From: Haliotis rufescens
Lineage: Eukaryota
DNA: 64,000 nucleotides
NCBI RefSeq assembly: GCF_023055435.1
Contig: NW_025963780.1
Coordinates: 10,416,001-10,480,000, forward strand
Direction of reading: 5' to 3'
The position numbers were made by a program, and so were the translations under genes. Below, piece by piece: positions 3,101-49,700 of the stretch (within the stretch, counting starts at the first letter, position 1; the number at the start of each line of letters is the position of its first letter). The notes beneath the pieces were generated by a model, which had not been told where the DNA came from, made no database searches, and was given only the letters and a program-made list of their open reading frames with translations.

Positions 3101-3309
3101 ATCATCCATGTAGTATGGATTAGTCATTAAACATATCATCCAAGTAGTATGGATTAGTCATTAACCAAATCATCCATGAAGTATGGATAAGTCATTAACC
3201 ATATCATCCATGTAAGATGGATTAGTCATAAAACATATCATCCATGTAGGATGGATTAGTCATTAACCACATCATCCATGTAGTATGGATTAGTCATTAA
3301 ACATATCAT
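145..3309. repeat. 34-bp minisatellite, about 93 copies
   Basis: unit GGATTAGTCATTAACCATATCATCCATGTAGGAT. Confidence 0.97.
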
Positions 3310-3310
3310 G

Positions 3311-4704
3311 TCAGACCCACCCATGCCCTAGTCCTACAAGCTGTACAATCTCAGACCACTGACCCTACAATGCCCTCGCCCTACAAGCTGTACCATCTCA
3401 GACCACTGACCCACCCATGTCCTCGTCCTACACGCTGTACCATCTCAGACCACTGAGCCACCCATGCCCTAGTTCTACAAGCTGTACCATCTCAGACCAC
3501 TGACCCTACCATGCCCTCGCCCTACAAGCTGTACCATCTCAGACCACTGACCCTACCATGCCCTCGCCCTACAAGCTGTACCATCTCAGACCACTCACCC
3601 ACCCATGCCCTAGTTCTACAAGCTGTACCATCTCAGACCACTGACCCACCCATGCCCTAGTCCTACAAGCTGTACAATCTCAGACCACTGACCCTACCAT
3701 GCCCTAGTTCTACAAGCTGTACCATCTCAGACCACTGACCCTACCATGCCCTCGCCCTAAAAGCTGTACCATCTCAGACCACTGACCCACCCATGCCCTC
3801 GTCCTACAAGCTGTACCATCTCAGACCACTGACCCTACCATGCCCTCGTCCTACAAGCTGTACCATCTCAGACCACTGACCCTACCATGCCCTCGTCCTA
3901 CAAGCTGTACAATCTCAGACCACTGACCCTACCATGCCTTCGTCCTACAAGCTGTACCATCTCAGACCACTGACCCACCCATGCCCTCGTCCTACAAGCT
4001 GTACCATCTCAGACCACTGACCCACCCATGCCCTCGTCCTACAAGCTGTACCATCTCAGACCACTGACCCTACTATGCCCTCGTCCTACAAGCTGTACCA
4101 TCTCAGACCACTGACTCACCCATGCCCTCGTCCTACAAGCTGTACCATCTCAGACCACTGACCCTACCATGCCCTCGTCCTACAAGCTGTACCATCTCAG
4201 ACCACTGACCCACCCATGCCCTAGTCCTACAAGCTGTACAATCTCAGACCACTGACCCACCCATGCCCTAGTTCTGCAAGCTGTACCATCTCAGACCACT
4301 GACCCTACCATGCCCTCGCCCTACAAGCTGTACCATCTAAGACCACTGACCCACCCATGCCCTCGTCCTACAAGCTGTACCATCTCAGACTACTGACCCA
4401 CCCATGCCCTCGTCCTACAAGCTGTACAATCTCAAACCACTGACCCACCCATGCCTTTGTCCTACAAGCTGTACCATCTCAGACCACTGACCCTACCATG
4501 CCCTCGTCCTACAAGCTGTACCATCTCAGACCACTGACCTACCCATGCCCTAGTTCTACAAGCTGTACCATCTCAGACCACTGACCCACCCATGCCCTCG
4601 TCCTACAAGCTGTACCATCTCAGACCACTGACCCACCCATGCCCTCGTCCTACAAGCTGTACCATCTCAGACCACTGACCCACCCATGCCCTAGTCCTAC
4701 AAGC
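3311..4704. repeat. 47-bp minisatellite, about 30 copies
   Basis: unit TCAGACCACTGACCCTACCATGCCCTCGTCCTACAAGCTGTACCATC. Confidence 0.97.
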
Positions 4705-10700: not shown

Positions 10701-13700
10701 CTGAATAAAGCACTTCCGTAAAAATAATAAACAGTGTATTCCCCCAAACAACACACGGTTCATATGTTCCTTCTGTTGACTGGCATTAAGGATGTTCAAA
10801 GGCAATAAAATAATTGAACCAACAACAGTTTACTGATTGGTATGCGAAGGTGTCAACAAGCTTGACACGAGTGGGTAGAACTCTTGACGCCAGCAGTGAT
10901 AACTCACTGGGTGCCCATTGTGTAATCCCTATTCTTTGAATGACATTGGTATATACTTATTACAACTGCTGCTCAATAAACCTTGTTTGTGTTTATGTTC
11001 AAGTTGGTATTTCCGCTATCCAACGTGTGCAGTGAGGCCATCTTATTGTTGATAGTCATTTGGAGACATAAATGCGAAGTTAATTAATGCGAGCAAAGAC
11101 ATTTCATTCACGCTTGCGTTAATTACAAGATTTACAGTATATGTTAGGGTGAGCCACAAGTTATTTCCTTTACCATATAGCAACAAGTCAATACAAGATG
11201 CAGTGTTACTCCACATCTCTGCTGTGTTGGTGTCAGTTTATACTCACATCGTCCTCAGCTCGGTGCCAGTGCTTCAGAAGGAAGGCAACAGATCTGTATG
11301 ACTTCTGGAGACAACTGCGGAAATTGGCCTTGGCCTCACACGTCACCCTCAACCCATGCTGGATCAGAACCCCTGCAACACAAGCAGACAGTCAGCCAGT
11401 GATTAGCCACGACAAGCATGGACAGACTACAGGAAACNNNNNNNNNNNNNNNNNNNNNNNNNNNNNNNNNNNNNNNNNNNNNNNNNNNNNNNNNNNNNNN
11501 NNNNNNNNNNNNNNNNNNNNNNNNNNNNNNNNNNNNNNNNNNNNNNNNNNNNNNNNNNNNNNNNNNNNNNNNNNNNNNNNNNNNNNNNNNNNNNNNNNNN
11601 NNNNNATCCAAGTTTACTAGCCCATACTGATTCTTGGTAACATTTACAAAGATACCCCACCCACTCAGACACATTATACAAACTGGCCAGTCCTTGTTGT
11701 ATCCCCTTATGCTGCACACCAGGCAGTCTAACAACAGGTACCAACTTGTGATGAGGCCAATCCACCCACATTCCACGTTCCAGGCAGATGCTCTATCCAC
11801 AACACCATGGAGGCAGTTTAAGTCACGTGGACATTTTTCTGCACAGTTCTTTCCTGACATCAGTAGAAGTTATATTCCCATCTGAACTACCAGAATAAAG
11901 GAAGCTTGCAAGCATAGTATTACCAGGTATGACACGTGGGCCGTCTGCCAGAGTTGTGATCCATAAGCGGAATTGCGGGTGTATTTTCTGGTCATGTATC
12001 TGAGTGGATGGCCTTGATCTTGCTATCAGACTGCGACCTTCATCACTGATGTCTGTGTTCTCCCGCTGTCTGTCCTCGGCAATCCACTTACTGTAGATGA
12101 TGTCCTGTGTGAAAACAATTGCCTCCATTTCCATCATACTCAACATGTCAACAAATATTTGCTTAAAGTAGCTGCCTAAATGAACTTTGGAGGGAGTGTT
12201 TCATTCCACAGCCGGCACTATTAGAGCTGCAGCACAGTAACCATACATGAGAGAAACTGGACCAGCCAACCACACAATGCTCATTGTAGACAGCTCATAT
12301 GGAAAACATGGCGTATAAGGGCCCAGAAGTCACTATGGGGAGACAAGCATGGATACTAGGCCCAGAAGTTACTATGGGGAGACAAGCATGGATACTAAGC
12401 CCAAAGTCACTATGGGGAGACAAGCATGGATACTAGGCCCAGAAGTTACTATGGGGAGACAAGCATGGATACTAGGCCCAGAAGTCACAATGGGGAGACA
12501 AGCATGGATACTAGGCCCAGAAGTCACTATGGGGAGACAAGCATGGATACTAGGCCCAGAAGTCACAATGGGGAGACAAGCATGGATACTAGGCCCAGAA
12601 GTCACTATGGGGAGACAAGCATGGATACTAGGCCCAGAAGTTACTATGGGGAGACAAGCATGGATACTAAGCCCAAAGTCACTATGGGGAGACAAGCATG
12701 GATACTAGGCCCAGAAGTTACTATGGGGAGACAAGCATGGATACTAGGCCCAGAAGTCACAATGGGGAGACAAGCATGGATACTAGGCCCAGAAGTCACT
12801 ATGGGGAGACAAGCATGGATACTAGGCCCAGAAGTCACAATGGGGAGACAAGCATGGATACTAGGCCCAGAAGTCACTATGGGGAGACAAGCATGGATAC
12901 TAAGCCCAGAAGTTACTATGGGGAGACAAGCATGGATACTAGGCCCAGAAGTCACTATGGGAAGACAAGCATGGATACTCGTGCCCAGAAGTTACAATGG
13001 GGAGACAAGCATGGATACTAGGCCCAGAAGTTACTATGGGGAGACAAGCATGGATACTAGGCCCAGAAGTCACTATGGGAAGACAAGCATGGATACTCGA
13101 GCCCAGAAGTTACTATGGGGAGACAAGCATGGATACTAGGCCCAGAAGTCACTATGGGGAGACAAGCATGGATACTAGGCCCACAAGTTACTATGGGGAG
13201 ACAAGCATGGATACTAGGCCCAGAAGTCACTATGGGGAGACAAGCATGGATACTAGGCCCAGAAGTTACTATGGGGAGACAAGCATGGATACTAGGCCCA
13301 GAAGTTACTATGGGGAGACAAGCATGGATACTAGGCCCAGAAGTTACTATGGGGAGACAAGCATGGATACTAGGCCCAGAAGTTACTATGATGAGACAAG
13401 CATGGATACTAGGCCCAAAGTCACTATCGGGAGACAAGCATAGATACTAGGCCCAGAAGTCACTACGGGGAGACAAGCATGGATACTAAGCCCAAGTCAC
13501 TATGGGAAGACAAGCATGGATACTAGGCCCAGAAGTTACTATGGGGAGACAAGCATGGATACTAAGCCCAAAGTCACTATCGGGAGACAAGCATGGATAC
13601 TAGGCCCAGAAGTTACTATGAGGAGACAAGCATGGATACTAGGCCCAGAAGTCACTATGGGGAGACAAGCATGGATACTCGTCCCCAGAAGTCACTATGG

Positions 13701-16700
13701 GGAGACAAGCATGGATACTAGGCCTAGAAGTTACTATGGGGAGACAAGCATGGATACTAAGCCCAAGTCACTATGGGAAGACAAGCATGGATACTAGGCC
13801 CAGAAGTTACTATGGGGAGACAAGCATGGATACTAGGCCCAGAAGTTACTATGGGGAGACAAGCATGGATACTAGGCCCACAAGTTACTATGGGGAGACA
13901 AGCATGGATACTAGGCCCAGAAGTCACTATGGGGAGACAAGCATGGATACTAGGCCCAGAAGTTACTATGGGGAGACAAGCATGGATACTAGGCCCAGAA
14001 GTTACTATGGGGAGACAAGCATGGATACTAGGCCCAGAAGTTACTATGGGGAGACAAGCATGGATACTAGGCCCAGAAGTCACTATGGGGAGACAAGCAT
14101 GGATACTCGTCCCCAGAAGTCACTATGGGGAGACAAGCATGGATACTAGGCCCAGAAATTACTATGGGGAGACAAGCATGGATACTAAGCCGTAAGGCAC
14201 TTTCGGGAGACAAGCATGGATACTAGGCCCAGAAGTTACTATGAGGAGACAAGCATGGATACTAGGCCCAGAACTTACTATGGGGAGATAAGCATGGATA
14301 CTAGGCCCAGAAGTTACTATGGGGAGACAAGCATGGATACAAGGCCCAGAAGTTACTATGGGGAGACAAGCATGGATACTAGGCCCAGAAGTCACTATGG
14401 GGAGACAAGCATGGATACTAGGCCCAGAAGTCACTATGGGGAGACAAGCATGGATATGAGGCCCTAAGTCACTATGGGGAGACAAGCATGGATACTAGGC
14501 CCAGAAGTCACTTTGGGGAGACAAGCATGGATACTAGGCCCAGAAGTCACTATTGGGAGACAAGCATGGATACTAGGCCCAGAAGTCACTATGGGGAGAC
14601 AAGCATGGATACTAGGCCCAGAAGTCACTATGGGAAGACAAGCATGGATACTAGGCCCAGAAGTCACTATGGGGAGACAAGCATGGATACTAGGCCCAGA
14701 AGTCACTATGGGGAGACAAGCATGGGTACTAGGCCCAGAAGTTACTATGAGGAGACAGGCATGGATACTAGGCCCAGACGTCACTATGGGAAGACAAGCA
14801 TGGGTACTAGGCCCAGAAGTTACTACGAGGAGACTGGCATGGATACAAGGCCCAGAAGTCACTATGGGGAGACAAGCATGGATACTAGGCCCAGAAGTCA
14901 CTATGGGGAGACAAGCATGGATACTAGGCCCAGAAGTCACTATTGGGAGACAAGCATGGATACTAGGCCCAGAAGTCACTATGGGGAGACAAGCATGAAT
15001 ACTAGGCCCAGAAGTCACTATGGGAAGACAAGCATGGATACTAGGCCCAGAAGTCACTATGGGGAGACAAGCATGGGTACAAGGCCCAAAGTCACTATGG
15101 GGAGACAAGCATGGATACTAGGCCCAGAAGTCACTATGGGAAGACAAGCATGGATACTAGGCCCAAAGTCACTATGGGAAGACAAGCATGGATACTAAGC
15201 CCAGAAGTCACTATGGGAAGACAAGCATGGATACTAGGCCCAGAAGTCACTATGGGGAGACAAGCATGGGTACTAGGCCCAGAAGTTACTACGAGGAGAC
15301 TAGCATGGATACTAGGCCCAGAAGTCACTATGGGAAGACAAGCATGGATACTAGGCCCAGAAGTTACTATGGGAAGACAAGCATGGGTACTAGGCCCAGA
15401 AGTTACTACGAGGAGACAAGCATGGATACTAGGCCCAGAAGTCACTATGGGGAGACAAGCATGGATACTAGGCCCAGAAGTCACTATGGGGAGACAAGCA
15501 TGGATACTAGGCCCAGAAGTCACTATGGGGAGACAAGCATGGATACGAGGCCCTAAGTCACTATGGGGAGACAAGCATGGATACTAGGCCCAGAAGTCAC
15601 TATTGGGAGACAAGCATGGATACTAGGCCCAGAAGTCACTATGGGGAGACAAGCATGAATACTAGGCCCAGAAGTCACTATGGGAAGACAAGCATGGATA
15701 CTAGGCCCAGAAGTCACTATGGGGAGACAAGCATGAATACTAGGCCCAGAAGTCACTATGGGAAGACAAGCATGGATACAAGGCCCAGAAGTCACTATGG
15801 GGAGACAAGCATGGGTACTAGGCCCAGAAGTTACTACGAAGAGACTAGCATGGATATTAGGCCCAGAAGTCACTATGGGGAGACAAGCATGGATACTAGG
15901 CCCAGAAGTCACAATGGGGAGACAAGCATGGATACTAGGCCCAGAAGTCACTATGGGGAGACAAGCATGGATACAAGGCCCTAAGACACTATGGGGAGAC
16001 AAGCATGGATACTAGGCCCAGAAGTCACTATTTGGAGACAAGCATGGATACTAGGCCCAGAAGTCACTATGGGGAGACAAGCATGAATACTAGGCCCAGA
16101 AGTCACTATGGGAAGACAAGCATGGATACTAGGCCCAGAAGTCACTATGGGAAGACAAGCATGGATACTAGGCCCAGAAGTCACTATGGGGAGACAAGCA
16201 TGGGTACTAGGCCCAGAAGTTACTACGAGGAGACAAGCATGGATACTAGACCCAGAAGTCACTATGGGAAGACAAGCATGGATACTAGGCCCAGAAGTTA
16301 CTATGAGAAGACAAGCATGGGTACTAGGCCCAGAAGTTACTACGAGGAGACTAGCATGGATACTAGGCCCAGAAGTCACTATGGGAAGACAAGCATGGAT
16401 ACTAGGCCCAGAAGTTAGTATGGGAAGACAAGCATGGATACTAGGCCCAAAGTCACTATGGGGAGACAAGCATGGGGTACTGAGGAAATTTTCTTCACTT
16501 GAATGCCTAACAATCGTACCTTGAGGAGAGAGAAGAAGTGTGAGTCAGGGTCACCAGCCAGGTGGTAGTTCTGCAGCAGCAGCCAGTACCCGGATTGGAG
16601 GCAGTCTTCAATGGCATGCTTCACCTCTGTTATCTGGGACTCCACCCCGAAGTTCATCACCCTCAGCTTGCCATCCATCCCCACCTCCCGTGCCAGACGC

Positions 16701-25700: not shown

Positions 25701-28700
25701 AGCACACACAGGCAGCAGTAATCAGGGCATCCCCTGGAGCAGAGCGCACATGTCGCTTTGCCTTCTTCAGCTCAGATCGCCACAGGAAGTGCTGCATAGA
25801 CATGTTCTCCATCAGGTTGCTGGCTCGGGCTATCTTCTTCTCTATACCCTGGGGAGGAAACAGTCGGCATTGATAAGTCTGTCCTGTCACTGGTACTTTG
25901 AAAAACATCATTATAAACAGTCATTAATCAAAGTAATGTGCAATGAACATTAAATGTTTTTTCTGCCTATTATTACTGAACATGTAGACATTGCTTATGT
26001 CAAATTGTTTGCACATTGAAAGTCCTCAACAACAGATGTCTAAATGGAGCTGAAGTTGTTAGTGCCACGTCCAAGCTCACCATGATGTGTTTCTCGATGG
26101 TCTTGGCCTTCTTGAGGGCAGCTCTGTGCAGCGTGATCTTCCTCTCCAGGCCTGACTTGATTCTGTTGGCCTCCACACGCAGATGGCCCAGTCGAGCTTG
26201 GGCCTGAAACAGTTCATACCATGAACAGCTACTCTCAACTCATGGACTGTATCTCAATGATAGGCTACTGAAACTTCTGCTCCAGGACAGAATATGTTTC
26301 AGCAACATTTAAACAGGCATTCTCGTATGTGCTCTAATGACATTTGTGGATTCTAGGACAGAATGTGTCCACTTCAACATTCACTCGGGCATACTTCTTT
26401 ATTTTAATCTGGTAACAATTTTAAATCCAGATAGATGGTATGGATCACTGTGAATTTTCAATTGGCAATGAACATGTAATTGATTGGAAAGGTGTTGATA
26501 AAAACATTTTGCCTTCCAATACATATTGGAGGTATCTGCCAGAATGTTCGTTTGTTTAGGCCTTGAACATGCAAAACATTTATCAATATTGACCGCCACA
26601 CTAACCTTTGTAAAGCGCTCTTCAGCAACATGGAGGTTATGGAGATGAGGTTGCATGCTGCGATGAATGGCCGAGTAACGATACACAGCATGTACCCACA
26701 AGCAAATGGATTCACCAGCTTTGCTCACTTTTGTCACATTTACTGGCACAAACAAGGGGTGCTCGATGAAGAAGCGCAGATCTTTGAAAATGTCATCTGG
26801 GACATGGTCCTTGTCATAAAAGATGAGCTCCTGCAGGAAGTTGTCTCGGATCAGCAGCAGCTTGCCCTCCTCCCAGCTGCAACAGGCAGGTCTATGTTTC
26901 ACAATACGGTAGTACTAGCCAGTGAGAAGTAGGGTTTAACAATAACCCAGCCATTCCCTGCTGGGGAAGAGCAAGAATATCCCATGTCTTTAAGAATACC
27001 CAGTCTTTAATGACCCAACACTTTAACCACTAGGCTATCCATCCCACTGACATAAAAAGGATACTTAGGGCAACCGAGTTTCCTTTTTGTTTTCCAAATG
27101 TTCCTTGGCAATATACCAAATTAAAAAATGTTGTCAGGGTAAGGCTAATTTAAAAAACAACAACTCTTTACTAAAATTTCTGCTCAATTCTGGTTGGATC
27201 CAAGACATGACATTGGTCTGAACTAAGAAGACGTTGTGTTTGACACAATTCTAGGAGCAACAAGCTGATTTACCTGCCATCATATCATAGCAGACATTTG
27301 TCATTTACTTTGTCTACACGTTCTGGTCAGTGATTACTAAAATGCACATGTGAAGACAACAAGAACACAATATGTCTCCTATGTCTGTATCAACGCTAAC
27401 AAGGCTAGCTACCAAAGCTACTCGACCCGTGAAGATTCCGGGGTAGAATAGGTCTTCAGCAACCCATGCTTACCGTAAAAGACAACTATGCTTGTCGTAA
27501 TAGGTGACTAACGGGATCGGGTGGTCAGGCTTGCTGACTCTGTTGATGCATGTCATTGATCCCAATTGCGTGGATCGATGCTCATGATATTAATCACTGG
27601 ATTGTCTGGTCCAGACTCGATTATTTACAGACTGCCGTCATACAGCTGGAATATTGCTGAGTGTGGTGTTAAACAACAAACCAACCAACCAAAGCTACTC
27701 ACTCGTGTTTTTTCCTAAAGAGCAGGCAGAGTGCGTTGATGACAAACTTGATGACATCAGGTGGTTCCCGATAACTCTTGAGTTCATCAATGTCATTCTT
27801 GCTGAGGGCACACAGAGCAGCCTGGGCCGCCTGGTAGCTGGGGTTCACCTGTAGCATACACACACATATACAACACTAAACGACCTCCCATGTAATACCA
27901 ATTAAAGAAACAAATGAATAATTCGGGTATCTGACGAGCAAGATTCACGAGGTTCATAAAATTGGTATAGAAGAGTAGTGAGTTTAGTATTTTATTTATT
28001 ACTTGCCGTTAATAACTTGTTTCAGAATTTCACTGACATATGTGAATAGGCAGACTACAATGCAATCCATAGCATAATACAATTGAGTAATATTTCAAAC
28101 CCATCAAAAGTTGACACTTTTAATATTTTAGTATTAATACAATACCATACAAGGGCCCAGCTTCAGAATACAGGGATCCGTTCCACAAAGCTATTGTAGT
28201 ACTACGGTTATTCATAATTCCTATATATACATAGATGTACGAGTGTCGATGCGCTACGATCGCCTTGTGAAACGGGACCCAACACCACAAAGTTTACAAT
28301 CATGTCACAATACCCTTTGACATATTTTGCGGAATTTTGTTACAAGATCCATCAGTGAAACAATGCCATGTGACGTCAGCCGTCAGCAACAGGGTTGTTG
28401 GGGGTCATCGAGTGTGCATAAGCTCCTCTCAGTGATCTATCATGTCTATAAGCAATGTCTTGAATTAGCCCAGCGATGTTGAGAGTTTTAAATATCTGTT
28501 AATGAAACTTGTTCCCGCAGTACATAAGCACATGCTTTGGTATTATACGATGTGAATTACAGCTGTATGTTTATTAAACAAGTGATCTCTTCATTTCAAC
28601 ACATGCATGTGTAAAAGTCAGGCTACAATGTGTTCAGGAAGCATTTTGTTAATACTTGAACATGAGCAAGTCTTTGACACAGGGATAAGGAAATGCTCAC

Positions 28701-31700
28701 AGATTTTCTCTTGAAGTTGGTAAAATCATGCTTTGTTTGCACATTTTAGTGATTCCTGTGAACTTCAAACATGTGAGAAGTAAAATAACTTGTAAGCGTG
28801 AGAAGGAAACATGGCTAGTAGCGACCACTGGAACATGACAGTTTGACATTCGAGCCTGCTTATCCTACCTCCTCTTGTCTCCCTCGGTGTGGCATGGGAG
28901 GGAACTGACCTTGTCAAACTCTGTCTGTGCGGACCTCCTCATGGTCTCCAGCGGGCCCTGCAGTGACATGATCTCCTCCTCCTGCTCCTTGCACTTGTCC
29001 AGGGACTGCAACATCGTCAGCGTCACACAATCAAGACATGCTGTACTGTACACTCAGTGATAAATGTCATAGAAGTTACTTTTGTCAAATTGTAGTATCT
29101 CAATGATCCTCAATTAGAAACATGACGTTTAAGATTCTTAAGATAATCGATATGAACTATGGAATGATATCCTCTAGGTAATGAATGTGTATTTATATTG
29201 ACATATCATTACAATAGTAACTTGGATAGGGTCACCTTGTATTTGATCTAATGATGTTTGCATGGTTCATCACCGTAAAATCTGTCAATCTGATCGGCGA
29301 ATTACTGTAAAATTATATACAAGATGGCTTGTACTGAGTGAGTTGGTTTTAACACCACTTTGAACAATATTTCAGCAAAATCATAGCATGAATGGAAGGA
29401 GAGCACAAATCAACTCAGATGTTTACCACTTTGCAGTATACACAGCAAATTGTGGTGCCTTGACAATTGTGTCCTATGCTCGGACTATTTGGTACCACGT
29501 GACCTATGTCCACTGCTGGTACTACCCACCTGTATGTACCATCCACCCACCTGTATGTACCCTCCACCTACCTGTATGTACCATCCACCCACCTGTATGT
29601 ACCCTCCATCTACCTGTATGTACCCTCAACCCACCTGTATGTACCCTCCAACCACCTGTATGTACCTTCCAACCACCTGTATGTACCCTCCACCTACCTG
29701 TATGTACCCTCCATCTACCTGTATGTACCCTCCAACCACCTGTATGTACCCTCCACCTACCTGTAAGCACCCTCCACCCACCTGTATGTACCCTCGCCCC
29801 ACCTGTATGTACCCTCCATCTACCTGGATGTACCCTCAACCAACCTGGATGTACCCTCACTACACCTGTATGTACCCTCCACCTACCTGTAAGTACCCTC
29901 CAACCACCTGTATGTACCTTCCAACCACCTGTATGTACCCTCCACCTACCTGTATGTACCCTCCATCTACCTGTATGTACCCTCAACCAACTTGGATGTA
30001 CCCTCACTACACCTGTATGTACCCTCCACCTACCTGTATGTACCCTCCACCTACCTGTATGTACCTTCCACCTACCTGTATGTACCTTCCACTCACCTGT
30101 ATGTACCCTCACCCCCCCTGTATGTACCCTCCACCCACCTGTATGTACCCTCCACCTACCTGGATGTACCCTCCACCCACCTGTAAGTACCCTCCACCCA
30201 CCTGTAAGTACCCTCCACTCACCTGTATGTACCATCCACCGACCTGTATGTACCCTCCACTCACCTGTATGTACCATCCACCGACCTGTATGTACCCTCA
30301 CCACACCTGGATATACCCTCACCCAACCTGTATGTACCCTCACCCAACCCGTATGTACCCTCCACCCACCTGTAAGTACCCTCCACCCTCCTGGATGTAC
30401 CCTCCACCTACCTGTATGTACCCTCCATCTACCTGTATGTACCTGTATGTACCCTCCATCTACCTGTATGTACCTGTATGTACCCTCCATCTACCTGTAT
30501 GTACCCTCCACCCACTTGTATGTACCCTCCACCCTCCTGGATGTACCCTCCACCCACCTGTATGTACCCTCCATCTACCTGTATGTACCTGTATGTACCC
30601 TCCATCTACCTGTAAGTACCCTCCACCCACTTGTATGTACCCTCCACCCACCTGTATGTATCCTCCACCCACCTGTATGTATCCTCCACCCACCTGTATG
30701 TACCCTCCATCTACCTGTATGTACCCTCCATCTACCGGTATGTACCCTCCATCTACCTGTAAGTACCCTCCACCCACTTGTATGTACCCTCCACCCACCT
30801 GTATGTATCCTCCACCCACCTGTATGTATCCTCCACCCACCTGTATGTATCCTCCACCCACCTGTATGTACCCTCCACCCACCTGTATGTACCCTCCACC
30901 CACCTGTATGTATCCTCCACCCACCTGTATGTATCCTCCACCCACCTGTATGTACCCTCCACCCACCTGTATGTACCCTCCACCCACCTGTATGTATCCT
31001 CCACCCACCTGTATGTACCCTCCACCCACTTGTATGTACCCTCCACCCACCTGTATGTACCCTCCACCCACCTGTATGTATCCTCCACCCACCTGTATGT
31101 ACCCTCCACCCACTTGTATGTACCCTCCACCCACCTGTATGTATCCTCCACCCACCTGTATGTATCCTCCACCCACCTGTATGTACCCTCCACCCACTTG
31201 TATGTACCCTCCACCCACCTGTATGTACCCTCCACCCACCTGTATGTATCCTCCACCCACCTGTATGTATCCTCCACCCACCTGTATGTATCCTCCACCC
31301 ACCTGTATGTATCCTCCACCCACTTGTATGTATCCTCCACCCACCTGTATGTACCCTCCACCCACCTGTATGTATCCTCCACCCACCTGTATGTATCCTC
31401 CACCCACCTGTATGTACCCTCCACTCACCTGTATGTACCATCCACCGACCTGTATGTACCCTCCACCCACCTGTATGTATCCTCCACCCACCTGTATGTA
31501 TCCTCCACCCACCTGTATGTACCCTCCACCCACCTGTATGTACCCTCCACCCACCTGTATGTATCCTCCACCCACCTGTAAGTACCCTCCACCCACCTGT
31601 ATGTATCCTCCACCCACCTGTATGTATCCTCCACCCACCTGTATGTATCCTCCACCCACCTGTATGTATCCTCCACCCACCTGTATGTATTCCTCCTTGT

Positions 31701-34700
31701 GCTGTTCCACCTGCTCCACCAACTCACGGATGGTCTCCATAGACAACTTGTGTTGTGGTGTGAGGTCCGACACTTCACGCTTGTACTCTGCGATGCTGCC
31801 AAACGCCTCGTCTATCTTCCCCAGGGCCTTCTCATACTTTACAATATTCACCTGAAACACACAACTACTATGTTCAAGACAACACCTCATGAACGACCAC
31901 ATGAACAACTGAAAAGTCCACAGCACAATAGGCAGCCTCAAAGGGAATGACATCATTACTCTGGTCCTTGGTATTCTTTGTTCACTGGGAAGCATATTCA
32001 CCACCCACAAGTTTTTGGCATGACATTACAATTTCAGCGTTCCTTTGGGTACCCACCCGCTCTCGTTTGACGACATAAGCTGCAACAACCTTGAAGAGAT
32101 GAACAAACTCCATGAAGGTGAGCGGCGTGTAGAACCTGAGTGGCTCCCTCTGGTGACAGAAGTGTCTTTCCACCGCTGACTTGGCCGAGAGGTGGATGTA
32201 GGCCATGGCATTACTTGCCATTGTAATTTGCTCCTCGCGTCGAGCTGGGTTCCATGGAATGACGATCTGAGAGAAAATATGTTGTATTGTAACCAAACTT
32301 TTACACAGCCACCTTAATGATTTTCTGAAACTTCAGCTTATTTTGCAATGTATTAATGGGTTCACTTCCTAAATTCATCGAGGTTTTCAGGGAGTGAAAA
32401 TCTAAAAAATGATTATTTTTATTTTAACATAACTCCTACCATCAGTTACAATAAAAAGATAATTCCTAACATGCCTAGGAAAGAAGACACGGTTGGATGA
32501 CCACATAGAACAAAAAGCACAGAGATCATTTACATCTCAGTTACACCATTTCTAAATAACAAATCTTTATTTTCAGCGAAACAATAGCTTCAATTTCCAA
32601 AGACCTCCATACAGAGCCTATGTCTTGATGCTGCTTGGAGTCACAAAGTAAATGACTACCACAAGGTCAATGATGTCTACACCAAAGGTCAATGGTTACC
32701 ACAAGGTCAAGGACTATTCATTGACCACCACAAGGTCAAGGATGACCACAATGTCAAAGACTACCACAAAGTTAATGACTACCCTAAGGTCAAAGAATAT
32801 TCAATGACTACCTACCACAAGGTCAGTGACTAGCATAAGGTCAAAGACTATCTTATGGTCAAGGACCACCACAAGGTCAAGGACTATCACAAGGTCAATG
32901 AGTACTGGTCACAAGTTACCTTTGATTTCTCGTCCTCCAGCCACGACCAGGCGACGGTTGTGAAGGCTTGGTAGGACCAGGGGAGGAACAGGTCGATACT
33001 GACACAGTGCTTCAGGAGCCCCGGGTACCTGTTCACTTTCTCATGCAGGGAGTGGAAGTCAGTGGAGTAGCTGTTCCCTAGAGGCGCATGGAGAATCATG
33101 TTGAGTGAGTGAGTGAGGTTTAACGCCGCTTTTAGCAATATTCCAGCAATATCACAGCGGGGGACACCAGAAATGGCCTTCACACATTGTACCCATCGAA
33201 CCCGGGTCTTCCCACCGCCCCTAGAATCATGTTGAAGTTAATGCTGTATGAGACTGGTTTACGATGGATGTCATGTTTGGAAAATGGATGGTTTGTTTTT
33301 ACACCACAGTGAGGAATTTTCAGGCATTATCACTGATAATATTGACAGAAATATGTGCTCAAAACGTCATATTCAGCATTTGATTGGAGTAAAGTTAAGA
33401 GTTTGTTTTGAATGTTTAATGCTGCATTCAGCAATATTCCAGCTATATGACAACAGACAATCCAGTGATTGATTATATGAGCAAAGATCCATGGGGTTGA
33501 GGTACGTTGATCTGCTGTCAACCAAATCACCAATCCATTTAGTCTCTAAATAGGACAAGCATAGCCGTTTGGGAATCAATACATAACATGAAATATGTGA
33601 TAAGTCTGACCCAGCAATTTACAAAATACAGCCACAAGGCTTTGCAGTTCACTTGAATTATGAAGAAATAATGGCGGCCATGTCAAAATTTAGATTTGAC
33701 TTTTTAGTTAAATGCTTAGAGACACCACAACTGGGATCTTTCTTACAAAGTTTCAAAGAACTTTCAGTTTCCGTTGTTTCAGAGCTGATGTCAAAACATG
33801 ACAGTGACACCAGAAAATGGGGTTAGGTGAAGGTCAGGGGAAAACATATGGCTGCCTTGTTTGGAGTCGGATCAGAATTCTGTGAGCACTTTTTAGAGAT
33901 ATCATTTGTACACAGTTTCAGCTACGTAGGCCTTGTAGTTTCAGCGGAGTCATCAACAATGTATAAAGTTCACTTGATTTTCAGTCAGGTGAGAGAGAAA
34001 GTGGTATTGACCACAAAATTGATTGCCAAATTTAGTCCATTCTTCAGTGAAGCTATACAGAGCGCCTTATCTCACCCTTGTAGTTGAGACAGACAATGAT
34101 GTGTAGATTCTGTTTGATCCTCTTGATGTAGCGATCAAACGCCTGCTCAATCTTATCGACCCTCTTGGTCTGTACACCCCCCGGCATCATCTGGCTGACT
34201 ATCTTCTGAACCTCAGCATCTGAGTACAGTCCCGGAGATGTTCCTGGCACACACAACACTTCGGTTAGTCTGATATAGTAAATAGAACATCAGATAATCA
34301 AGCATAATTACCCTACACATCATGCTGGATAACAAGCTAACATCAAATATCGCCATTCAACTATGATAAATATTCAAGACCCATACCTTCATTAGAAAAG
34401 TGACATCAGTCTCTTACATAATATACGCCTGTAATTTAATTGGACAGCAATTTTTAGGGTTACATGTCATTTTTAACAGGCTCAAATTGAAACATTCCTA
34501 ATGAACAGGTCTTCGGTATTCGTCATAGGACACTCAAGGATGAGTGACAATGCAATGTTCAGAAAGAGACAGGAACTCCTGCTGACACCGTGGCCCACCT
34601 TCTGCCATGAGGGTGCTGATGTCCTGGAGACAGGCGGTGCCCAGATCCTCGTGGATCAGCAGCACTGCAGGTTTCCCCACCACCCCGGCGTGCTGGCAGG

Positions 34701-37700
34701 AGCGCTTGATGTGCTCCCTCACGATGGTCAGGTTGTACCCCCGGTCTGTCTGGGGCTTCGGCTCGTACACCTGGGAAGTCACATGATGATGTTCAACACA
34801 TGTCTTACTGCATTATCTTTGCCAAACCATCTCGTACTACTGCTGGAATGTGTTATAACCTGATTGAATATATGAAAATTTGAACTGTTTGATAAAAAAG
34901 TTTTTGGTCAACAAAACCAGGACAATTACTGGTCCGAAAAGAAATTCAGGAGACAACAAACTTTGCTATTTAATCAGAAACACTTTCATAATTCAACTAA
35001 TTTGCCATCGTTTTGCCATTTGTTCAGGTAAAGAAAATCAGGAGATTGACATTGCATATTTCTTCACAGTAGATGTGTGGTGTTGGGGTGAACAATCAAC
35101 CGGGTTCAAGTCTTGGTCAGAGTACCATGGAGTGTAAGCAGCCACTTGATGACATGGCCTTGTGTCTGGTACGTCAAACTCATACTCAATACAGAACTGT
35201 CTCCACCTGTTGTCTCTAATAATAAACATAACAAGGTAAAAGGAATCCAACATACAATACATCAGTGCCTGTTTAATCATCCTTACCTTGCAGTGTGCAA
35301 TGTAGGCAGCCAGTCTGGCCAGTGTGGCTCTCCCAGTACAGTAGCTCATGCCTAGCAGTAGGCCGTGGCCGCCAGGGTGCGCCTGAAAGTACATTAACAT
35401 GGATTCATAAAAGAACCATAATGTGAGTAATGGAATTTTATGTTAGGTCTCACTATGAAATATTACAACAAATACTTGGCCTCTATTCTGAATGAAAGGA
35501 GACATCGGCATGAAGTTGTGACACTCTCTGTATGACATCAACCCCATGGAGAGTCACAGTGGACCCTATCACCCCATTCTTTCTGACAGCTGTCATCCTA
35601 ATCAATGGCATGGATTGTTCATGCTACTAATCACTGACTTGCCTGATGACCTACACAGGTCACCATGATATAGCTGCAATATTATACTATATATCTGTAG
35701 GGTAATGAATGTTCTCACCAGTATCCGGCTGAGTCTGGCAGCATGGTTGATGGCCTCAGTGAAGAACACCACCTCGAGTCTCTGCCAAGTTCCTGTGTTG
35801 TACTCCGCCAGACAGGTGGCCAGGGCCTCTCTCAGACCCTCTTCTGTACTCTCCATATACCCTGCACATATACAGCAACAGCGTTCATTGAGCATGGGAC
35901 ATTGGCTTGTACACATCAACAGCTTTCATGGAGCATGGGACATGCGCTTGTACACAGCAACAGCTTTCATGGAGCATGGGACATTGGCTTGTACACATCA
36001 ACAGCTTTCATGGAGCATGGGACATGCTCTTGTACACAGCAACAGCTTTCATGGAGCATGGGACATGCGCTTGTACACATCAACAGCTTTCATGGAGCAT
36101 GGGACATGCACTTGTACACAGCAACAGCTTTCATGGAGCATGGGACATTGGCTTGTACACAGCAACAGCTTTCATGGAGCATGGGACATACACTTGTACA
36201 CAGCAACAGCTTTCATGGAGCATGGGACATACACTTGTACACATCAACAGCTTTCATGGAGCATGGGACATGCTCTTGTACACAGCAACAGCTTTCATGG
36301 AGCATGGGACATGCGCTTGTACACATCAACAGCTTTCATGGAGCATGGGACATTGGCTTGTACACATCAACAGCTTTCATGGAGCATGGGACATGCGCTT
36401 GTACACAGCAACAGCTTTCATGGAGCATGGGACATGCGCTTGTACACAGCAACAGATTTCATGGAGCATGGGACATGCTCTTGTACACAGCAACAGCTTT
36501 CATGGAGCATGGGACATGCTCTTGTACACAGCAACAGCTTTCATGGAGCATGGGACATGCGCTTGTACACATCAACAGCTTTCATGGAGCATGGGACATG
36601 CGCTTGTACACAGCAACAGCTTTCATGGAGCATGGGACATGCGCTTGTACACATCAACAGCTTTCATGGAGCATGGGACATGCTCTTGTACACAGCAACA
36701 GCTTTCATGGAGCATGGGACATGCGCTTGTACACATCAACAGCTTTCATGGAGCATGGGACATGCACTTGTACACAGCAACAGCTTTCATGGAGCATGGG
36801 ACATGCACTTGTTTCAGACACAGGGGAACTATAGGCTTGCATAAATTACACAAACTGTTTCAGACACAGGGGAACTATAGGCTTGTACAAATCAGACAAA
36901 CTGTTTCAGATACAGGGGAACTATAGGCTTGTACAAATCAGACAAACTGTTTCAGACACAGGGGAACTATAGGCTTGTACAAATCAGACAAACTGTTTCA
37001 GACACAGGGGAACTATAGGCATGTACAAATCAGACAAAATGTTTCAGACACAGGGGAACTATAGGCTTGTACAAATCAGACAAACTGTTTCAGACACAGG
37101 GGAACTATAGGCTTGCACATATCAAGTTTTGACCAAAACTAAAACAATATCTGTCTACAGAATATGACAGCTGACAGAAAGGCTGATTACACTGAGCTGA
37201 ATATGTAACCTATTTGAGTTAAACAACGATGTGCCAATAACTATGAAACATTTTTTGTTTGCTATTTTGATTGAAGTAAAACATAATAGATCAAGTCCTG
37301 TACCTTTCTCCACAGGCTGGCCCTGAGCTTCTGTGTGACACGACATGAAGAACTTGCTGAAGATGAAATCGGTGACGTTGCTGCAGCCGCCCTTAATCTG
37401 AAACATGTCACATGAAACAATACTAATAGAATTTCTACTTATTTACATTACTCTCAAAGATTGTCAGGTTCTTTTTGCTATTACATCAGTAGAAGAATAA
37501 ATCGGCTCTGATAATTTAGGCCATGGCTTTAAGATGGTGTGGTCATTAATAGGAATTAATTCTGGTTCGACCGTGCCTTAGAATTTGTCGTTAAAGAGTG
37601 ACTGACTGCTGTATTAACATACACATCATTTTCGCAGTCAAACCAAAGTGGGTTTTGAAAGTCTTGACTGCCCATTCCCCAAGTCTAGCCCTATTCACAA

Positions 37701-40700: not shown

Positions 40701-43700
40701 TATACACAGGTACTCTGGAAGGCTCCGTTTGAGCCCCTACATTCATCATCATTTTATGACCTTACTAAGAAAATGGTTTTCCTCTTGGCACTGGCTACAA
40801 CGGTGTGGGTCAGCAAACTCAATGCCTTAGAAGTCACTCAGGTCTGTTTTGAGCATGACGCTCTTGGAGCTGTTCACTTTGAACTGCGGTGGAATTTCAT
40901 TGCCAAGAATCAACTCCCAGGACAGTTTTTCAATTAATCAATTATTCTTCAGGCGGCCGCCAGTTTAGACCCTCCCAAGGCCAACAACACACCTGAAATT
41001 AGAGCGGTTGCGTCGACTATGGCTCTTCATAGCAACTGCTCCCTCAAGTCTATTATAGAAGGGTGTTTCTGGCGTTCCAATACCATTTTCATCAGTCATT
41101 ATTTCAGGCTGTGGCATTGGAGGATGTCGCTGGTGTTCATAGTTTCAGTCCGATGGTTTCAGTGCCCTCCTATCGCAGTGCTACCTCCTCATGAGGTCTT
41201 CAGATGTTATGTTCCAAAGCAGTAATGTGCTTTTATATGACGTCACCTCATATGTGAGTTAGGAGTCAAAGTGGTGTTTGAATGACAAGCTCGGAGTGCC
41301 AATTGACCAGGGCCGAGCGACACTTCAGCAACAGTCCTGTACACTGACCTGATGGCGTGCCATATGTGCTAGTCTCATCTGACATGTCCGACTCCTCAGT
41401 GCTGTCTTCCGTGTTGTCGGAGTCGTCTGTCACCTCGTCATGCTCCGCGCTGCCGTGATCAACCTCACCTGCTGTCTCTGTCTCAGTTACCTCCCCTGCA
41501 ACAAGCCGGTGGAATACAACACTACTTCCTGCAATATTGATAAGTTATAAACATGAAAAACAACAACATACAAATATAGCAGTAAATTGCTGTGGCAAGT
41601 ATCCCTGTATGTCACAAACTGTACAGTTACACTGACATTAGGACTTACTTGGTTCACTTTTTCTGCCTCCAGCCAACATTTAGAAAACAAGAAAATCACT
41701 GTGGAGTTGTGGACTGCACATTGTATGCTACAAGGTTGTATTTGCTGGGGGGAATGAAGTCCATTAAACACAGTGATGTACGATACGCAAGACAATATGA
41801 TACTGAGATGTTTTCTCCAATATGGCATATTCATAAATATTACAGATCTATTAGATGTGTTTAAACATATTTATCTTACCACCATCTGTGTGTGTTTGTG
41901 TTGTCTCGAGTTCAGTTGTCACATCCATGGATGTGTCACGCGCAGAGGAGTTTGTCTGGCTGGTAGAGTCCGTCTGGGGGGACTCGGACGACTGGCCTTG
42001 ACCTTGGTATCCTCGTGATGGTGACTCGGAGGATGACTGCTGCTGCACCTGACTGCCTAGGCTCATGCTGGTCATTGATATCCCATCTTCCCCAGTGTTG
42101 TCCACACCCATCATCACCTTATCTCCAGACTCATCGTCATAGGGGTCAAGGTCATCATCAATGTCAGAAGGCGTTCCAGGTGGAGGTGTGCAGTGAGGAC
42201 CTCTTTTTGTCGGAGTAGATCGCCCCTGGAGTGGTGAATACTACCGCTATTACTACTACTGGAGTAGATCGCCCCTGGTGTGATGAATACTACCACTATT
42301 ACTACTACTTGAGTAGATCGCCCCTGGAGTGGTGAATACTACCACTATTATTACTACTGGAGTAGATCGCTACTGGAGTGGTGAATACTACCACTATTAC
42401 TACTACTGGAGTAGATCGCTACTGGAGTGGTGAATACTACCGCTATTACTACTACTGGAGTAGATCGCCCCCAGAGTGGTGAATACTACCACTATTATTA
42501 CTACTGGAGTAGATCGCTACTGGAGTGGTGAATACTACTGCTATTACTACTACTGGAGTAGATCACTACTGGAGTGGTGAATACTACCACTATTACTACT
42601 ACTGGTAATGATAGAGATAACTGACAGATTTTGTCTACTTGTTTCTGACACTTGCATGTGGAATTTGACATTTTGAAATCAACAAAACAAAAATTAAAAA
42701 TGTTCCATACACATATACAGACTTGTTACATTTATAGAGTGTTTAAGAATATAAGGAAGTGAATGTTGTTTTGGGCCACAGTCAGCAATATTCCAGCTTT
42801 AACATGGCTACCTTTATATAACCAGGCTTCAAAGTTGCGACTAAAACGGTAGCCAATGCGACCTAAATTTCAGTTTGTCTACTGTCTAAAATTCAGAGGT
42901 AGAAAAATATCTTGACTAAATTCTATTGCTACACATCTGTAGACACAAAAATAAATAACAGCTGATATTGGAAAATATGTTTGCTAATAATTGTACTCGC
43001 AAATAATTCCTTCTAAAGTCGACAATGAACCAAAATACATAAATATTAATGTAATTAGTACTTTATTTTAGTTGACAATGCTCATTGGATGAGCAAGGAT
43101 ATACCTATATAATCTAGTAACATAAACTGCATCATTGTTCGAGTCACAAATAACAAAAATCAAGTAGTTTCCACTGATATACAATTTCATGACTATTGCT
43201 GTAACTTGTACATATTATGATAGTTAGTTGATAAAGATAATTTCAAATGCTTTTGGCTACCTACAATATAGGCTTGACTTTTTTATTTTACCACTGGCTA
43301 ACTGGAAAAAAATACTTGTAGCCATATGGCTACTTGGTAAAAATTTAAACTTTGAGGCCTGATAACTTAGTGAAGACCAGGCTCGTAACAGGAAACATGA
43401 GCAGTGATCCACAGCATTGTGATGACACGCAATCAGTCCAAGCACAGAGCCGGACATCTCACGGCAAGCCACTCGTGCTGGAAGGCTGTTCAACAGTCAT
43501 GATATTCTGGCACTCACAAACTGAGACTGGGTTTCCTCTGTGATGGCTGCCATCTCAGTGGCAGGGCTGTCCCGGGGGCTACAGAAGTGCTTCACCACCG
43601 CCTCCTCCAGGGTCCTGGAGAACCACAGCTGGTCTGGCACACACATAACATGGGATTACTCAACAAGGTTGGGTAAAGGAAAAGGGACAAAAGTTAACAT

Positions 43701-46700
43701 CAAACATGTGCACTCCTCAATTTAATAAAGGGAGCGTACGTTACAAAACTGTTTACATCTCTACTGCCACACAATTTTAGGATCGGCAACATAACAGATG
43801 TCAATATGATTCTCATACACATCACAACCACCTACCCTCTGATGATATAAGTCTGTCAGAAAATGTGCGACAACATTCATGACACCAGAGCTGTGTGATG
43901 ACCTTCATCATGGGGGCAGCGGGGGTGAGTGTGGCAATCTGTTCCCCCCGTCCACCACCGGCCAGGCTGCTTTGGCTGACAGTGTACGACTGGCTGGAAT
44001 CAAATGATGTCTGCCGACCTGCAGCAGTCTTCGACTCTGAAATCATCATGTTTCAGTATCAGACGAGTTTCAACATTTGAGAGATAAACTGAGACCACCT
44101 AAAACTGAGCTGTGTATCAGAAGGAACACGAACAAGATGAGGATGTTGGCGATTGTTGGGTTGCAACTTCATTGTAAGCATTAGTACAAACAGCAGAGGA
44201 CATAGGACACATAACACACTAGTTTGTCAGGGTTAGCATAAAACATTTTTTTTTTCACATCCTCATCTCTTAGTGACAGTTAACCTACTACAGTGTTGCA
44301 CACTATGTTCACTTGTTCATGGTTAACATCCTACATTGTTACACACTATGTTCTCTGTTTCATGGTTAACATCCTACATTGTTACACACTATGTTCTCTG
44401 TTTCATGGTTAACTTCCTACATTATTACACACTATGTTCTCTGTTTCATGGTTAACATCCTACATTGTTACACATTATGTTCTCTGGGTCATTGTTAACA
44501 TCCTACATTGTTACACACTATGTTCTCTGTTTCATGGTTAACATCCTACATTGTTACACACTATGTTCTCTGGGCCATTGATTACATGCTACATTGTTAC
44601 ACACTATGTTCTCTGGGCCATGGTTAACATCCTACATTGTTACACACCATGTTCCCTATTACATGGTTAACATGCTCCATTGTTACACACTATGTTCTCT
44701 GGGTCATGGTTAACATCCTACATAGTTACACATTATGTTCTCTGGGCCATTGTTAACATGCTACATTGTTACACACTATGTTCTCTGTTTCATGGTTAAC
44801 ATCCTACATTCTTACACACTATGTTCTTTGTTTCATGGTTAACATCCTACATTGTTACACACTATGTTCTCTGTTTCATGGTTAACATCCTACATTGTTA
44901 CACACTATGTTCTCTGGGTCATGGTTAACATCCTACATTGTTACACATTATGTTCTCTTGGTCATGGTTAACATCCTACATTGTTACACACTATGTTCTC
45001 TGGGTCATGGTTAACATCCTACATTGTTACACACTATGTTCTCTGTTTCACGGTTAACATCCTACATTGTTACACACCATGTTCTCTGTTTCATGGTTAA
45101 CATGCTCCATTGTTACACACTTTGTTCTCTGGGTCATGGTTAACATCCTACATTGTTACACACTAAGTTCTCTGTTTCATGGTTAACATGCTACATTGTT
45201 ACACACTATGTTCTCTGTTTCATGGTTAACATCCTACATTGTTACACACTATGTTCTCTGGGTCATTGTTAACATGCTACATTGTTACACACTATGTTCC
45301 CTATTACATGGTTAACATCCTACATTGTTACACATTATGTTCTCTGGGTCATTGTTAACATCCTACATTGTTACACACTATGTTCTCTGTTTCATGGTTA
45401 ACATCCTACATTGTTACACACTATGTTCTCTGTTTCATTGTTAACATGCTACATTGTTACACACTATGTTCCCTATTACATGGTTAACATCCTACATTGT
45501 ATACACTATGTTCTCTTGGTCATTGTTAACATGCTACATCGTTACACACTACGTATTCTGGGTCATGGTTAACATGCAATATTTTGAAACCTACTGCTTT
45601 CTTCCTTGTCCTTCTTCTTGGTGCGAAGTTTCCTGATCCGTGACCTGGGTGACATAAGCAGGATGCCCTGCACGACACGCGAAATGTCGTGAAGAGAGAA
45701 GACGTAGTGGGCATGTGCAGGAGTCGGTCGAAGCTTGTCTCGGACTGATTGATACAGCTCCACCAGACCAACAATCATTGCCTGGGGAAAGTCAAATAAT
45801 CTTACAGCAGAAGAAGAAGAAGGATTCAGTCAGCAATATTAAGCCATCACACATCATCCTCTAACTAATCTGTGCCAGTCAAACTAGTGGTTCATAACAT
45901 GCTCAAGGACCCACCCTGTCAGCCAAAGTACAGACACCATCAACCCCATTTTAGTCAGCTCTAGCATTGAGTCCCCACAACATCACTAACCCACTGAGTG
46001 ATACATCTGACCTACCTGTCCGAACTCATAGTGGTGCTCCACAGTATAGGTCGGGAACTCCTCTAGCCAGGGCTGTAACTGCCGAGAGTAGATCGTAACT
46101 AGGTTCTCCATCGATGGACAAAACACGCACAGGTTGATGAACAGTCGCGTCAATCGAGATGACATCACATGACATGCATGTCCCAGACCTGTACCTGAGG
46201 TTTAACACAGACAGATGGTCAAACATGTACGTATACAGGAAGTATGTCTCATGAGTCTGTACTGGCAGTGGAGAACAGAAACCAAAAGCTAACTGGGAAC
46301 TTCTGGAATGTGCACATGTACAGTGTAACCGCAAGTGAATCACATTCGTGAGGACAGTCAAAAATATACCAACACTTAAGACTAGACAAGAGGAGTGCCT
46401 TGACCTCGAGTTGAAATCTGCCTTGACCATATAATCATCTTCAAAAGATTGACTTTCCTCTTTCACTGTATCTTCCATGCATTTTCATTAAAAGTAGGCA
46501 CATGTATAACGAATCCGTCTTAACTTGATGATAAAGCTAACACACCATGTAAGAAAGGTTCTCTGCAAAGACCAAAAGATATTTGTGTGTGAAAGAGTGT
46601 AATTGTATCATAGTTATGCACAAAAGCTGAAATAAGCAAATAAATATAAGCCAAGAGATATTATATCTGATGTACACTCAAAAAGTCCAGAGAATACTTG

Positions 46701-49700
46701 TGTTAATGCTATACTTTAGGTTTATGGATCTGCATAAGCTACTTAAAAAAAGTGACAAGAACTAATTCTGAAAAGATATATTTTCTTATTCTGCCAAATA
46801 TGTGTAGACCAAGTAAACATAAATGACGACTTTACAAACAATTAATTAAACACATGGCAATATTATTAGTTATGGTGTCTTTAGTTGCCATATATGGTGT
46901 CATATAAGCAGAAAGATATAGGGCGAGGCATATGCAAAAAAGTTTACACTATTTGGTATCTTTGTCAGACATGTTATGTCAAAATGAAAACTTGACACTT
47001 ACAACCGGTATAAACGACAGGACCAGTATATATGTACCCCATATACAACACTTTATCAGAAAAATAAACGTCATCAAGGGAATATATAATGCACTAAATG
47101 TGAATGTTTAAAAGTATTATATCCAAAATGGATAGAATTATCATAAAAATGCCCGCATGTTAACAGAAATCTGCGGGTCACTGTTACTTGACAGCAGTCC
47201 ACTTCCCCTAACGAGAGGCTGCTGTCTATTCTATTGCTATGTGACGTCATTTACGTTTCTTGTTTGTGACATCATCCTATATCATGTTCTATGACGTTGC
47301 TATTTGTAACTCCATGACCTCCATTGAAAGCTTTTTTTCTCTATAATTTTTATCAATAAAGTCATGAACTAGGTTTCTTTCATAAATAATGTCTTTGCTC
47401 ATCACGATTAATGATATTAAAACACAAAGCTGTCAAATAACAAATTTCTGTACCAGAATTTCTATGTGAAATTTGTGAGGTGGGAGTTGGAAAATCCAAA
47501 ATGGCTGTTATTGACAGTATACGGTCTCATATTAGGTCAGTAACAACCATCTTGGATTTTTACTGATGTATACGGGCTCATGTGGTGTTAGTAGTTCTGC
47601 TCTCTGATTGGTCAATCTCACTTTGAGACATAATAAATTCAGATACATTTTTGAATAACAGAAAAAAGATCTGAAATGACTTTCTATTCTTTGACACACA
47701 AATCTGTAAACCAAGAAATAAGTCTATGAAAGCAGAAGCAACAGAAGCTATATTTTTGTTAGGCCTTACCGGGAGATGAGGGTGTGGTGCAGGCTGCCAC
47801 GAATGTCGCCTCCTCCATGCCCTGGAAGCGCTGTCTCTGTCTGTCGTACACACCGCCAGTTGTCAGGATCTGTCGCAGCACCTCAAGTGGGGGCTGGTAG
47901 GCTGTTCACAACAACAGTTACCATGGTGACAAGAATAGCGGTCAAATGGGAGCATGTTATCTTGTGTAATAAATAATGTTTAAGTTAACTAGCAACCTGA
48001 GTCTATTGTATGTAACAGATGTCAAAAGGAACAGTGCAAAATATATAGTATTGGTGACGTAGGTATGTAGAGTCATTCACAACAGTATGAAAAATCAAAT
48101 CAATGATAGGCATGGCAAGAGCGAGACTTTTTCCCACAAACATCCATTCCAATAACCACCATTCATTCCCGTACCCTTCATTCACGAAGAACAGGTAATC
48201 CTTACTGGTAAGAATTGAACTGATAAGCTGGGTGATGCTCTACTTAGAGTGGAGAAGGGCTACAATATTGTGACAACACAATGAACCTACAGCCTATCCT
48301 CTGTGCCATGTTGAGAAGGGCTACAATATTGTGACAACACAATGAACCTACAGCCTATCCTCTGTGCCATGTTAAGAAGGGCTACAATATTGTGACAACA
48401 CAATGAACCTACAGCCTATCCTCTGTGCCATGTTAAGAAGGGCTACAATATTGTGACAACACAATGAACCTACAGCCTATCCTCTGTGCCATGTTGAGAA
48501 GGGCTACAATATTTTTCTGTAACACAATGAACCTACAGCCTATCCTCTGTGGCATGTTGGGAAGGGCTACAATATTGTGACAACACAATGAACCTACAGC
48601 CTATCCTCTGTGCCATGTTGAGAAGGGCTACAATATTGTGACAACACAATGAACCTACAGCCTATCCTCTGTGGCATGTTCAGAAGGGCTACAATATTGT
48701 GACAACACAATGAACCTACAGCCTATCCTCTGTGGCATGTTGAGAAGGGCTACAATATTGTGACAACACAATGAACCTACAGCCTATCCTCTGTGCCATG
48801 TTGAGAAGGGCTACAATATTGTGACAACACAATGAACCTACAGCCTATCCTCTGTGGCATGTTCAGAAGGGCTACAATATTGTGACAACACAATGAACCT
48901 ACAGCCTATCCTCTGTGCCATGTTAAGAAGGGCTACAATATTGTGACAACACAATGAACCTACAGCCTATCCTCTGTGGCATGTTCAGAAGGGCTACAAT
49001 ATTGTGACAACACAATGAACCTACAGCCTATCCTCTGTGGCATGTTCAGAAGGGCTACAATATTGTGACAACACAATGAACCTACAGCCTATCCTCTGTG
49101 CCATGTTGAGAAGGGCTACAATATTGTGACAACACAATGAACCTACAGCCTATCCTCTGTGCCATGTTGAGAAGGGCTACAATATTGTGACAACACAATG
49201 AACCTACAGCCTATCCTCTGCGCCATGTTGAGAAGGGCTACAATATTGTGACAACACAATGAACCTACAGGCTATCCTCTGTGCCATGTTAAGAAGGGCT
49301 ACAATATTGTGACAACACAATGAACCTACAGCCTATCCTCTGCGCCATGTTCAGAAGGGCTACAATATTGTGACAACACAATGAACCTACAGCCTATCCT
49401 CTGTGCCATGTTCAGAAGGGCTACAATATTGTGACAACGCAATGAACCTACAGCCTATCCTCTGTGCCATGTTGAGAAGGGCTACAATATTGTGACAACA
49501 CAATGAACCTACAGCCTATCCTCTGTGCCATGTTAAGAAGGGCTACAATATTGTGACAACACAATGAACCTACAGCCTATCCTCTGCGCCATGTTGAGAA
49601 GGGCTACAATATTGTGACAACAAAATGAACCTACAGCCTATCCTCTGTGCCATGTTGAGGTCATCTACAAAGAAGAGATGCCTCTGCCTGTCCGCGGCCT

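Follow-up and report, generated by a model that had tools for sequence, protein, structure and literature searches.

The 3' end of a coding exon in a putative dynein heavy chain gene of the abalone Haliotis rufescens was found to be reiterated, together with its 5' splice site, as a 21-nt intronic minisatellite. We consider it quite probable that this minisatellite was born locally, with a unit spanning the exon end and the donor, and that the first donor is the one used, the roughly 100 copies being mostly silent. The abalone array is a large example of the known junction-spanning minisatellites of the F7 IVS7 or 'mirage' type. The following features lie in the window, i.e. the whole 64,000-nt stretch analysed (a slash marks a splice junction):

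31681..31851, minus strand: 171-nt coding exon, phase 0/0, of the putative DNHD1-like dynein heavy chain, N-terminal part of CC1 (tblastn, and Pfam on homologue P0001)
31675..31683, minus strand: authentic splice donor CAG/GTGGGT (site 0), colinear with acceptor 29005 in 9/9 mollusc homologues
29524..31689, minus strand: junction-spanning minisatellite, 21-nt unit, about 103 copies, 104 pseudo-donors (TRF, site listing, exact-match search)
30589..31680, minus strand: proximal, homogenised part of the array, 52 units in frame without a stop, which would read (VGGGYIQ)n if retained
31423..31431, minus strand: site 12, CAG/GTGAGT, the sole in-frame pseudo-donor that outscores site 0 (matrix score 12.1 vs 11.3)
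29524..30588, minus strand: distal, more diverged part of the array, with three 10-nt deletion units, frameshifts and stops (unit comparison)
29006..29523, minus strand: remainder of the 2,675-nt intron, unique sequence (518 nt) with its own acceptor (..TGTTGCAG)
28910..29005, minus strand: next coding exon, SLDKCK...EFDK (tblastn; spliced into contigs of 3/3 RNA-type runs)

In the window, TRF reported a repeat at 29524-31689 with a period of 21, 102.7 copies and 88% matches; a 21-nt array of this kind is far beyond chance. Read on the minus strand, the unit was GTGGGT followed by GGAGG[A/G]TACATACAG, and the 3' end of the 31681..31851 exon read GGAGGAATACATACAG, terminating in GAG GAA TAC ATA CAG. 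The 21-nt unit corresponded to the last 16 exon bases minus one, together with the first 6 intron bases. The array edge at 31689 was located inside the coding exon and the donor at 31681/31680, so that the first monomer spanned the exon-intron boundary; unique intron sequence restarted directly after the final GTGGGT of the array. On the minus strand, 105 junction-like sites were observed, made up of the real donor, with 31681 as its final exon base, plus 104 copies that extend as far as 29529/29530. GT was kept in 102 and AG/GT in 92 of the 105 sites, and the 9-mer CAG/GTGGGT of the real donor was found unchanged in 49 of the 104 copies. The unit length was 21 nt throughout the array, with the exception of three units of 10 nt.

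According to tblastn, the minus-strand exons matched mollusc proteins from AAA2 to the C-terminal domain. The nearest named matches were DNHD1-like proteins from gastropods and bivalves, and another close match was annotated as inner-arm I1 beta-like. Judged by these closest named homologues, which are mollusc proteins with AAA, stalk and C-terminal domains, the host gene appears to encode a DNHD1-like dynein heavy chain; the homologues retrieved by the protein searches all came from other genera. The array-bearing exon showed 53-69% identity to its mollusc homologues. In P0001, Pfam placed the end of the AAA4 profile at residue 246 and the stalk profile at 295-590, with the array junction at 314/315. 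This junction lies within the stalk profile and about 34 residues ahead of the proline preceding the microtubule-binding domain, and therefore falls within CC1; in the alignment to a solved axonemal dynein, there was no gap at this position. These results agreed with the preliminary description, which had assigned the exon to CC1, the stalk coiled coil whose heptad registry couples ATPase state to microtubule affinity. In a clam homologue (P0006), a 20-residue insert (residues ~3852-3871) was observed at the next exon junction (EFDK/VNP), also within CC1, which could reflect either a wrongly modelled gene or a genuine additional exon. Human DNHD1 (dynein heavy chain domain-containing protein 1) is linked to sperm flagellum defects in the report PMC9916431.

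In the 1.33-Gb genome, at least 33 exact matches to the unit pattern were found, and all 33 of those listed were located within this array; a dispersed repeat as the origin of the unit was rejected on this basis. The unit would instead have arisen by a single short tandem duplication across the junction, followed by amplification through slippage and unequal exchange, and the block adjoining the exon would be the younger, homogenised one. The proximal units carried 0.23-0.58 mismatches per unit, with 6-7 distinct units per 26, whereas the distal units carried about 1.8 mismatches per unit, with 13-18 distinct units per 24-25, and look older than the proximal 52 by this comparison. Duplicated sub-blocks were present within the array, and the homogenised proximal block beside a diverged distal one is the pattern of concerted evolution. 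At unit position 12, the exon-like A was confined to the proximal 49 units and G was present in all distal units; this split is polarised turnover anchored at the exon end. Exon-to-array conversion was considered from the same position and set aside, since a single site does not tell conversion apart from ancestry. In a related organism, a DNA contig (X15) matched through 29544, and its 4 listed differences were all outside the array. In the X15-matched stretch at 29544, the unit and the exon end differed at 5 of 15 positions, and the match therefore indicated that the related organism also has at least the final duplicated unit. Long near-perfect repeats may be mis-sized in an assembly, but the X15 match and the structured variation along the array argue against the array being an assembly artefact, an explanation to which we give next to no weight.

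The preliminary description had counted about 100 tandem donors, the first 50 or so in frame, and had proposed that their use would insert (VGGGYIQ)n and leave the mRNA free of a premature stop. Both statements held at the sequence level: sites 1-52 of the 104 copies were in frame and free of stops, GT was present in 52/52, and the 9-mer was the same as that of the real donor in 39 of them. After unit 52, the frame was shifted by a 10-nt unit; the first in-frame stop was at 30462, and the stop-to-stop ORF in the exon frame covered 30460..32025. The unit lacks one base relative to a simple 22-nt copy, and this brings it into frame. The consensus unit was free of stop codons in all six frames, an in-frame stop was created by just 4 of its 63 single-base changes, and two antisense frames were open longer (792 and 822 codons). 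The open frame is thus not a sign of selection, and selection on it was rejected; we infer that both the open frame and the in-frame length follow from the unit sequence as by-products. Two observations weigh against the by-product reading. Within the exon frame, the proximal 52 units had zero stops and the distal units 61-103 had 11, although the proximal block contains few independent variants. In addition, the unit owes its in-frame length to the lost base. An in-frame bias among the junction-spanning arrays of the gene was likewise rejected, as the 21-nt array alone among the four has a unit divisible by 3. The correspondence of the unit to exactly one heptad, to which the preliminary description had drawn attention, is best read as chance, because the other three junction-spanning arrays have units of 49, 61 and 70 nt.

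To score the splice sites, a donor matrix was derived from 34 other donors of the same gene and an acceptor matrix from 42 of its acceptors, all picked automatically near alignment ends. Site 0 scored 11.3, above every leave-one-out score of the 34 other donors, and 53 of the 104 pseudo-donors scored equal to or above site 0. An insert at the array junction was absent in 9/9 mollusc homologues, a count that leaves out the vertebrate matches P0008 and P0036, for which there was no exon-by-exon mapping. The pattern GG[GW]Y[IL]Q was found in 0 of 69 fetched proteins, none of which is from this genus. In each of the three RNA-type runs, which come from 3 studies, the spliced contigs used acceptor 29005; the run type 'RNA' is a guess, and the contigs of those runs are spliced. 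In X1 and X5, the exon at 28910-29005 was joined, with introns removed, to the two exons that follow it, and in X9 to the one that follows. Upstream of acceptor 29005, the contigs were unbroken for 1,190 nt in X1 and 1,472 nt in X9, and the X5 contig began just 27 nt upstream of it. Units retained in a transcript were computed to give repeated 31-mers (1 at n=2 and 22 at n=3). With an assembly word size of 31, which we take to apply to these contigs, a transcript that keeps more than one unit would be expected to leave a broken or collapsed contig; the unbroken X1 and X9 contigs thus suggest that the dominant transcript likely carries zero or at most one retained unit. These results did not bear out the expectation that the array donors are used to a meaningful degree, as 9/9 mollusc homologues were insert-free and the contigs were unbroken in 2/3 runs. 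Nor did the array resemble a coding VNTR, which is kept in mRNA and protein: a frameshift and a stop follow unit 52, the nine homologues lack the insert and the contigs run through unbroken.

By analogy with experiments on human F7, and in line with the contig continuity, the most upstream donor would win, and the 57-residue exon would be joined to 29005 from donor 0 rather than donor 1. A small share of splicing might leak to the one or two copies that come next. Assembled contigs lose rare variants and may collapse loops, which leaves room for a possible minor ladder of array donors. Several points nevertheless stand against first-donor use: 39 in-frame copies are the same as the real donor and site 12 is stronger, the homologue set is without this genus, the F7 mechanism comes from mammalian cells only, and human 6-16 and CBS, as reported in PMC1557585, also use two pseudo-sites.

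In an alternative reading, the in-frame copies serve as genuine alternative donors and yield, at a meaningful or regulated level, a 21-nt ladder of NMD-resistant mRNAs with a (VGGGYIQ)n stalk. Its support comes from the 52 in-frame stop-free sites with their identical and stronger donors, from the one missing base that places the unit in frame, and from the pseudo-site use described for human 6-16 and CBS (PMC1557585). We regard such a ladder as unlikely: besides the insert-free homologues and the unbroken contigs of two runs, the unit is open in six frames, the proximal unit variants comprise 4 synonymous and 5 non-synonymous types, and an insert so rich in Gly would be expected to disrupt the CC1 helix. 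Still less likely, in our estimate, is a tunable ladder in the dynein stalk, in which the lost base brought the unit into frame, VGGGYIQ heptads are added to CC1 without NMD, the surplus GT..CAG units are re-spliced so that the donor array corrects itself, and allele length sets the share of disabled motors.

Re-splicing was also evaluated in its own right. If the CAG/GT copies were recursive or re-splicing sites, removal of a kept GT..CAG stretch of 21n nt would restore the normal mRNA exactly and the array would in this way correct itself; since the exon itself ends in CAG, an array-internal splice would be invisible in the mature mRNA. The preliminary description had pointed to CAG/GT as a proto-splice or ratchet motif, and this stood as far as the juxtaposed AG/GT is concerned, which was present in most units (92 of 105 sites). 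Of the 94 array AGs, 24 were above the 10th percentile of the real acceptors, the best one (5.6) beat 18 of the 42, and 3' recursive events are known in dystrophin according to PMC4829307. The part that did not stand was a functional 3' site with a pyrimidine tract and a branch point. The pyrimidine share before the AG was 0.31 in the array vs 0.62 in the real acceptors, the median acceptor score was 1.6 vs 6.3, 0/94 array AGs reached the real median, and a branch-like motif was observed in 7/94 array AGs vs 25/42 real acceptors. In the re-splicing context, the median score was -1.5, and the intron measures merely 2.7 kb. Because the CAG/GT copies score poorly as acceptors, recursive splicing is very unlikely.

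A further explanation takes the array for an intron that is still being gained, through tandem duplication of an AGGT proto-splice site. AGGT is present in most units, the model is documented in PMC3443670, and mirages have been proposed as a path to new introns in PMC3087553. The model as given in PMC3443670, however, requires that an exonic AGGT segment be duplicated, and here the duplicated AGGT is the existing junction: the unit holds 6 intron bases, and the 518 nt of unique intron were kept with their own used acceptor, 29005, outside the array. We consider this explanation hardly credible.

The abalone minisatellite, with its probable use of the first donor, has close relatives in human genes. 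Intron 7 of human F7 (IVS7) contains a 37-bp VNTR with 5-9 copies, out of frame, in which use of the first site was shown by minigenes in mammalian cells, as described by Borensztajn et al. 2006 (PMC1557585). According to the same source, its first monomer spans the exon-intron boundary and identical donors follow, as in the abalone array, and the intronic hexamer (UGG/gugggu) is shared. The two differ in that the abalone array has about 103 copies of 21 nt, 52 of them in frame, and that first-site use is only inferred here. PMC1557585 also lists human 6-16 (25 pseudo-sites), CBS IVS13, LMNB2 and PDGF intron 4 as donor-reiterating intronic minisatellites of 10-25 copies. Donor reiteration is common to all of these and the present array; by that account, 6-16 and CBS use two pseudo-sites in addition, and LMNB2 and PDGF use the authentic site only. 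Among invertebrates, PMC3087553 describes amphioxus 'mirage' minisatellites in Adh3 and in the globins BflGb6 and BflGb9, which carry tandem copies of a donor or acceptor boundary, evolve in concert within a cluster and reportedly leave normal splicing undisturbed. The globin arrays reported there consist of 3-6 units of about 150 bp in another phylum, whereas four such arrays were found here in one gene. The features shared with the mirage type are the boundary-spanning first monomer, the reiterated splice site, the local origin and the concerted evolution. Our literature searches on abalone minisatellites returned nothing relevant, and no paper on this locus was found. As it stands, the array is a curiosity, and its value lies in a natural experiment on how 5' splice sites are chosen in non-mammals: it provides 52 in-frame, NMD-proof decoys, of which 39 match the real donor exactly and one is stronger, so that RNA reads would allow mis-splicing to be counted directly. 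Should a ladder reach the protein, it would amount to repeat-length control on the dynein stalk; nothing that we found points there.

Arrays occupied 19.2 of the 56.8 kb gene span. In the array-junction statistics, for which 11 of the 88 junctions were placed by visual inspection, 4 of 15 arrays spanned a junction vs 1.8 expected by chance (P ~0.09, not significant), and 8 of 15 were within 50 nt of a junction vs 3.8 expected (P ~0.02, with the cut-off set post hoc). The arrays as a group may therefore lie nearer to exon edges than chance would place them. A donor-spanning array in the same gene (48252-49659, minus strand) has a 61-nt unit that includes 25 exon nt (AAA3 region, DDLNMAQ) and GCT/GTAGGT; it is out of frame, and GT was kept in 22/22. 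An acceptor-spanning array (61718-63997, minus strand) has a 70-nt unit, 32 nt of which are exonic and precede the AAA2 P-loop, and AG was kept in 32/32; its real site reads TCAG/ and every copy CCAG/, and it reaches the window edge. The acceptor-spanning 49-nt array (42212-42605, minus strand) has 8 copies and two in-phase candidate acceptors (42240 and 42225), and the splice dinucleotide was kept in 7/7. The arrays at 12320-16475, 32642-32905, 35872-36812 and 44279-45575 do not span a junction, and their edges are 11-45 nt from a splice site. At 144-4704, downstream of the last mapped exon, two minisatellites abut each other (34 nt x 93 and 47 nt x 30), and a similar abutting pair was present at 35872-37124. 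At ~27420-27690, a very high-copy dispersed SINE-like repeat was found, with matches in thousands of contigs from all four runs.
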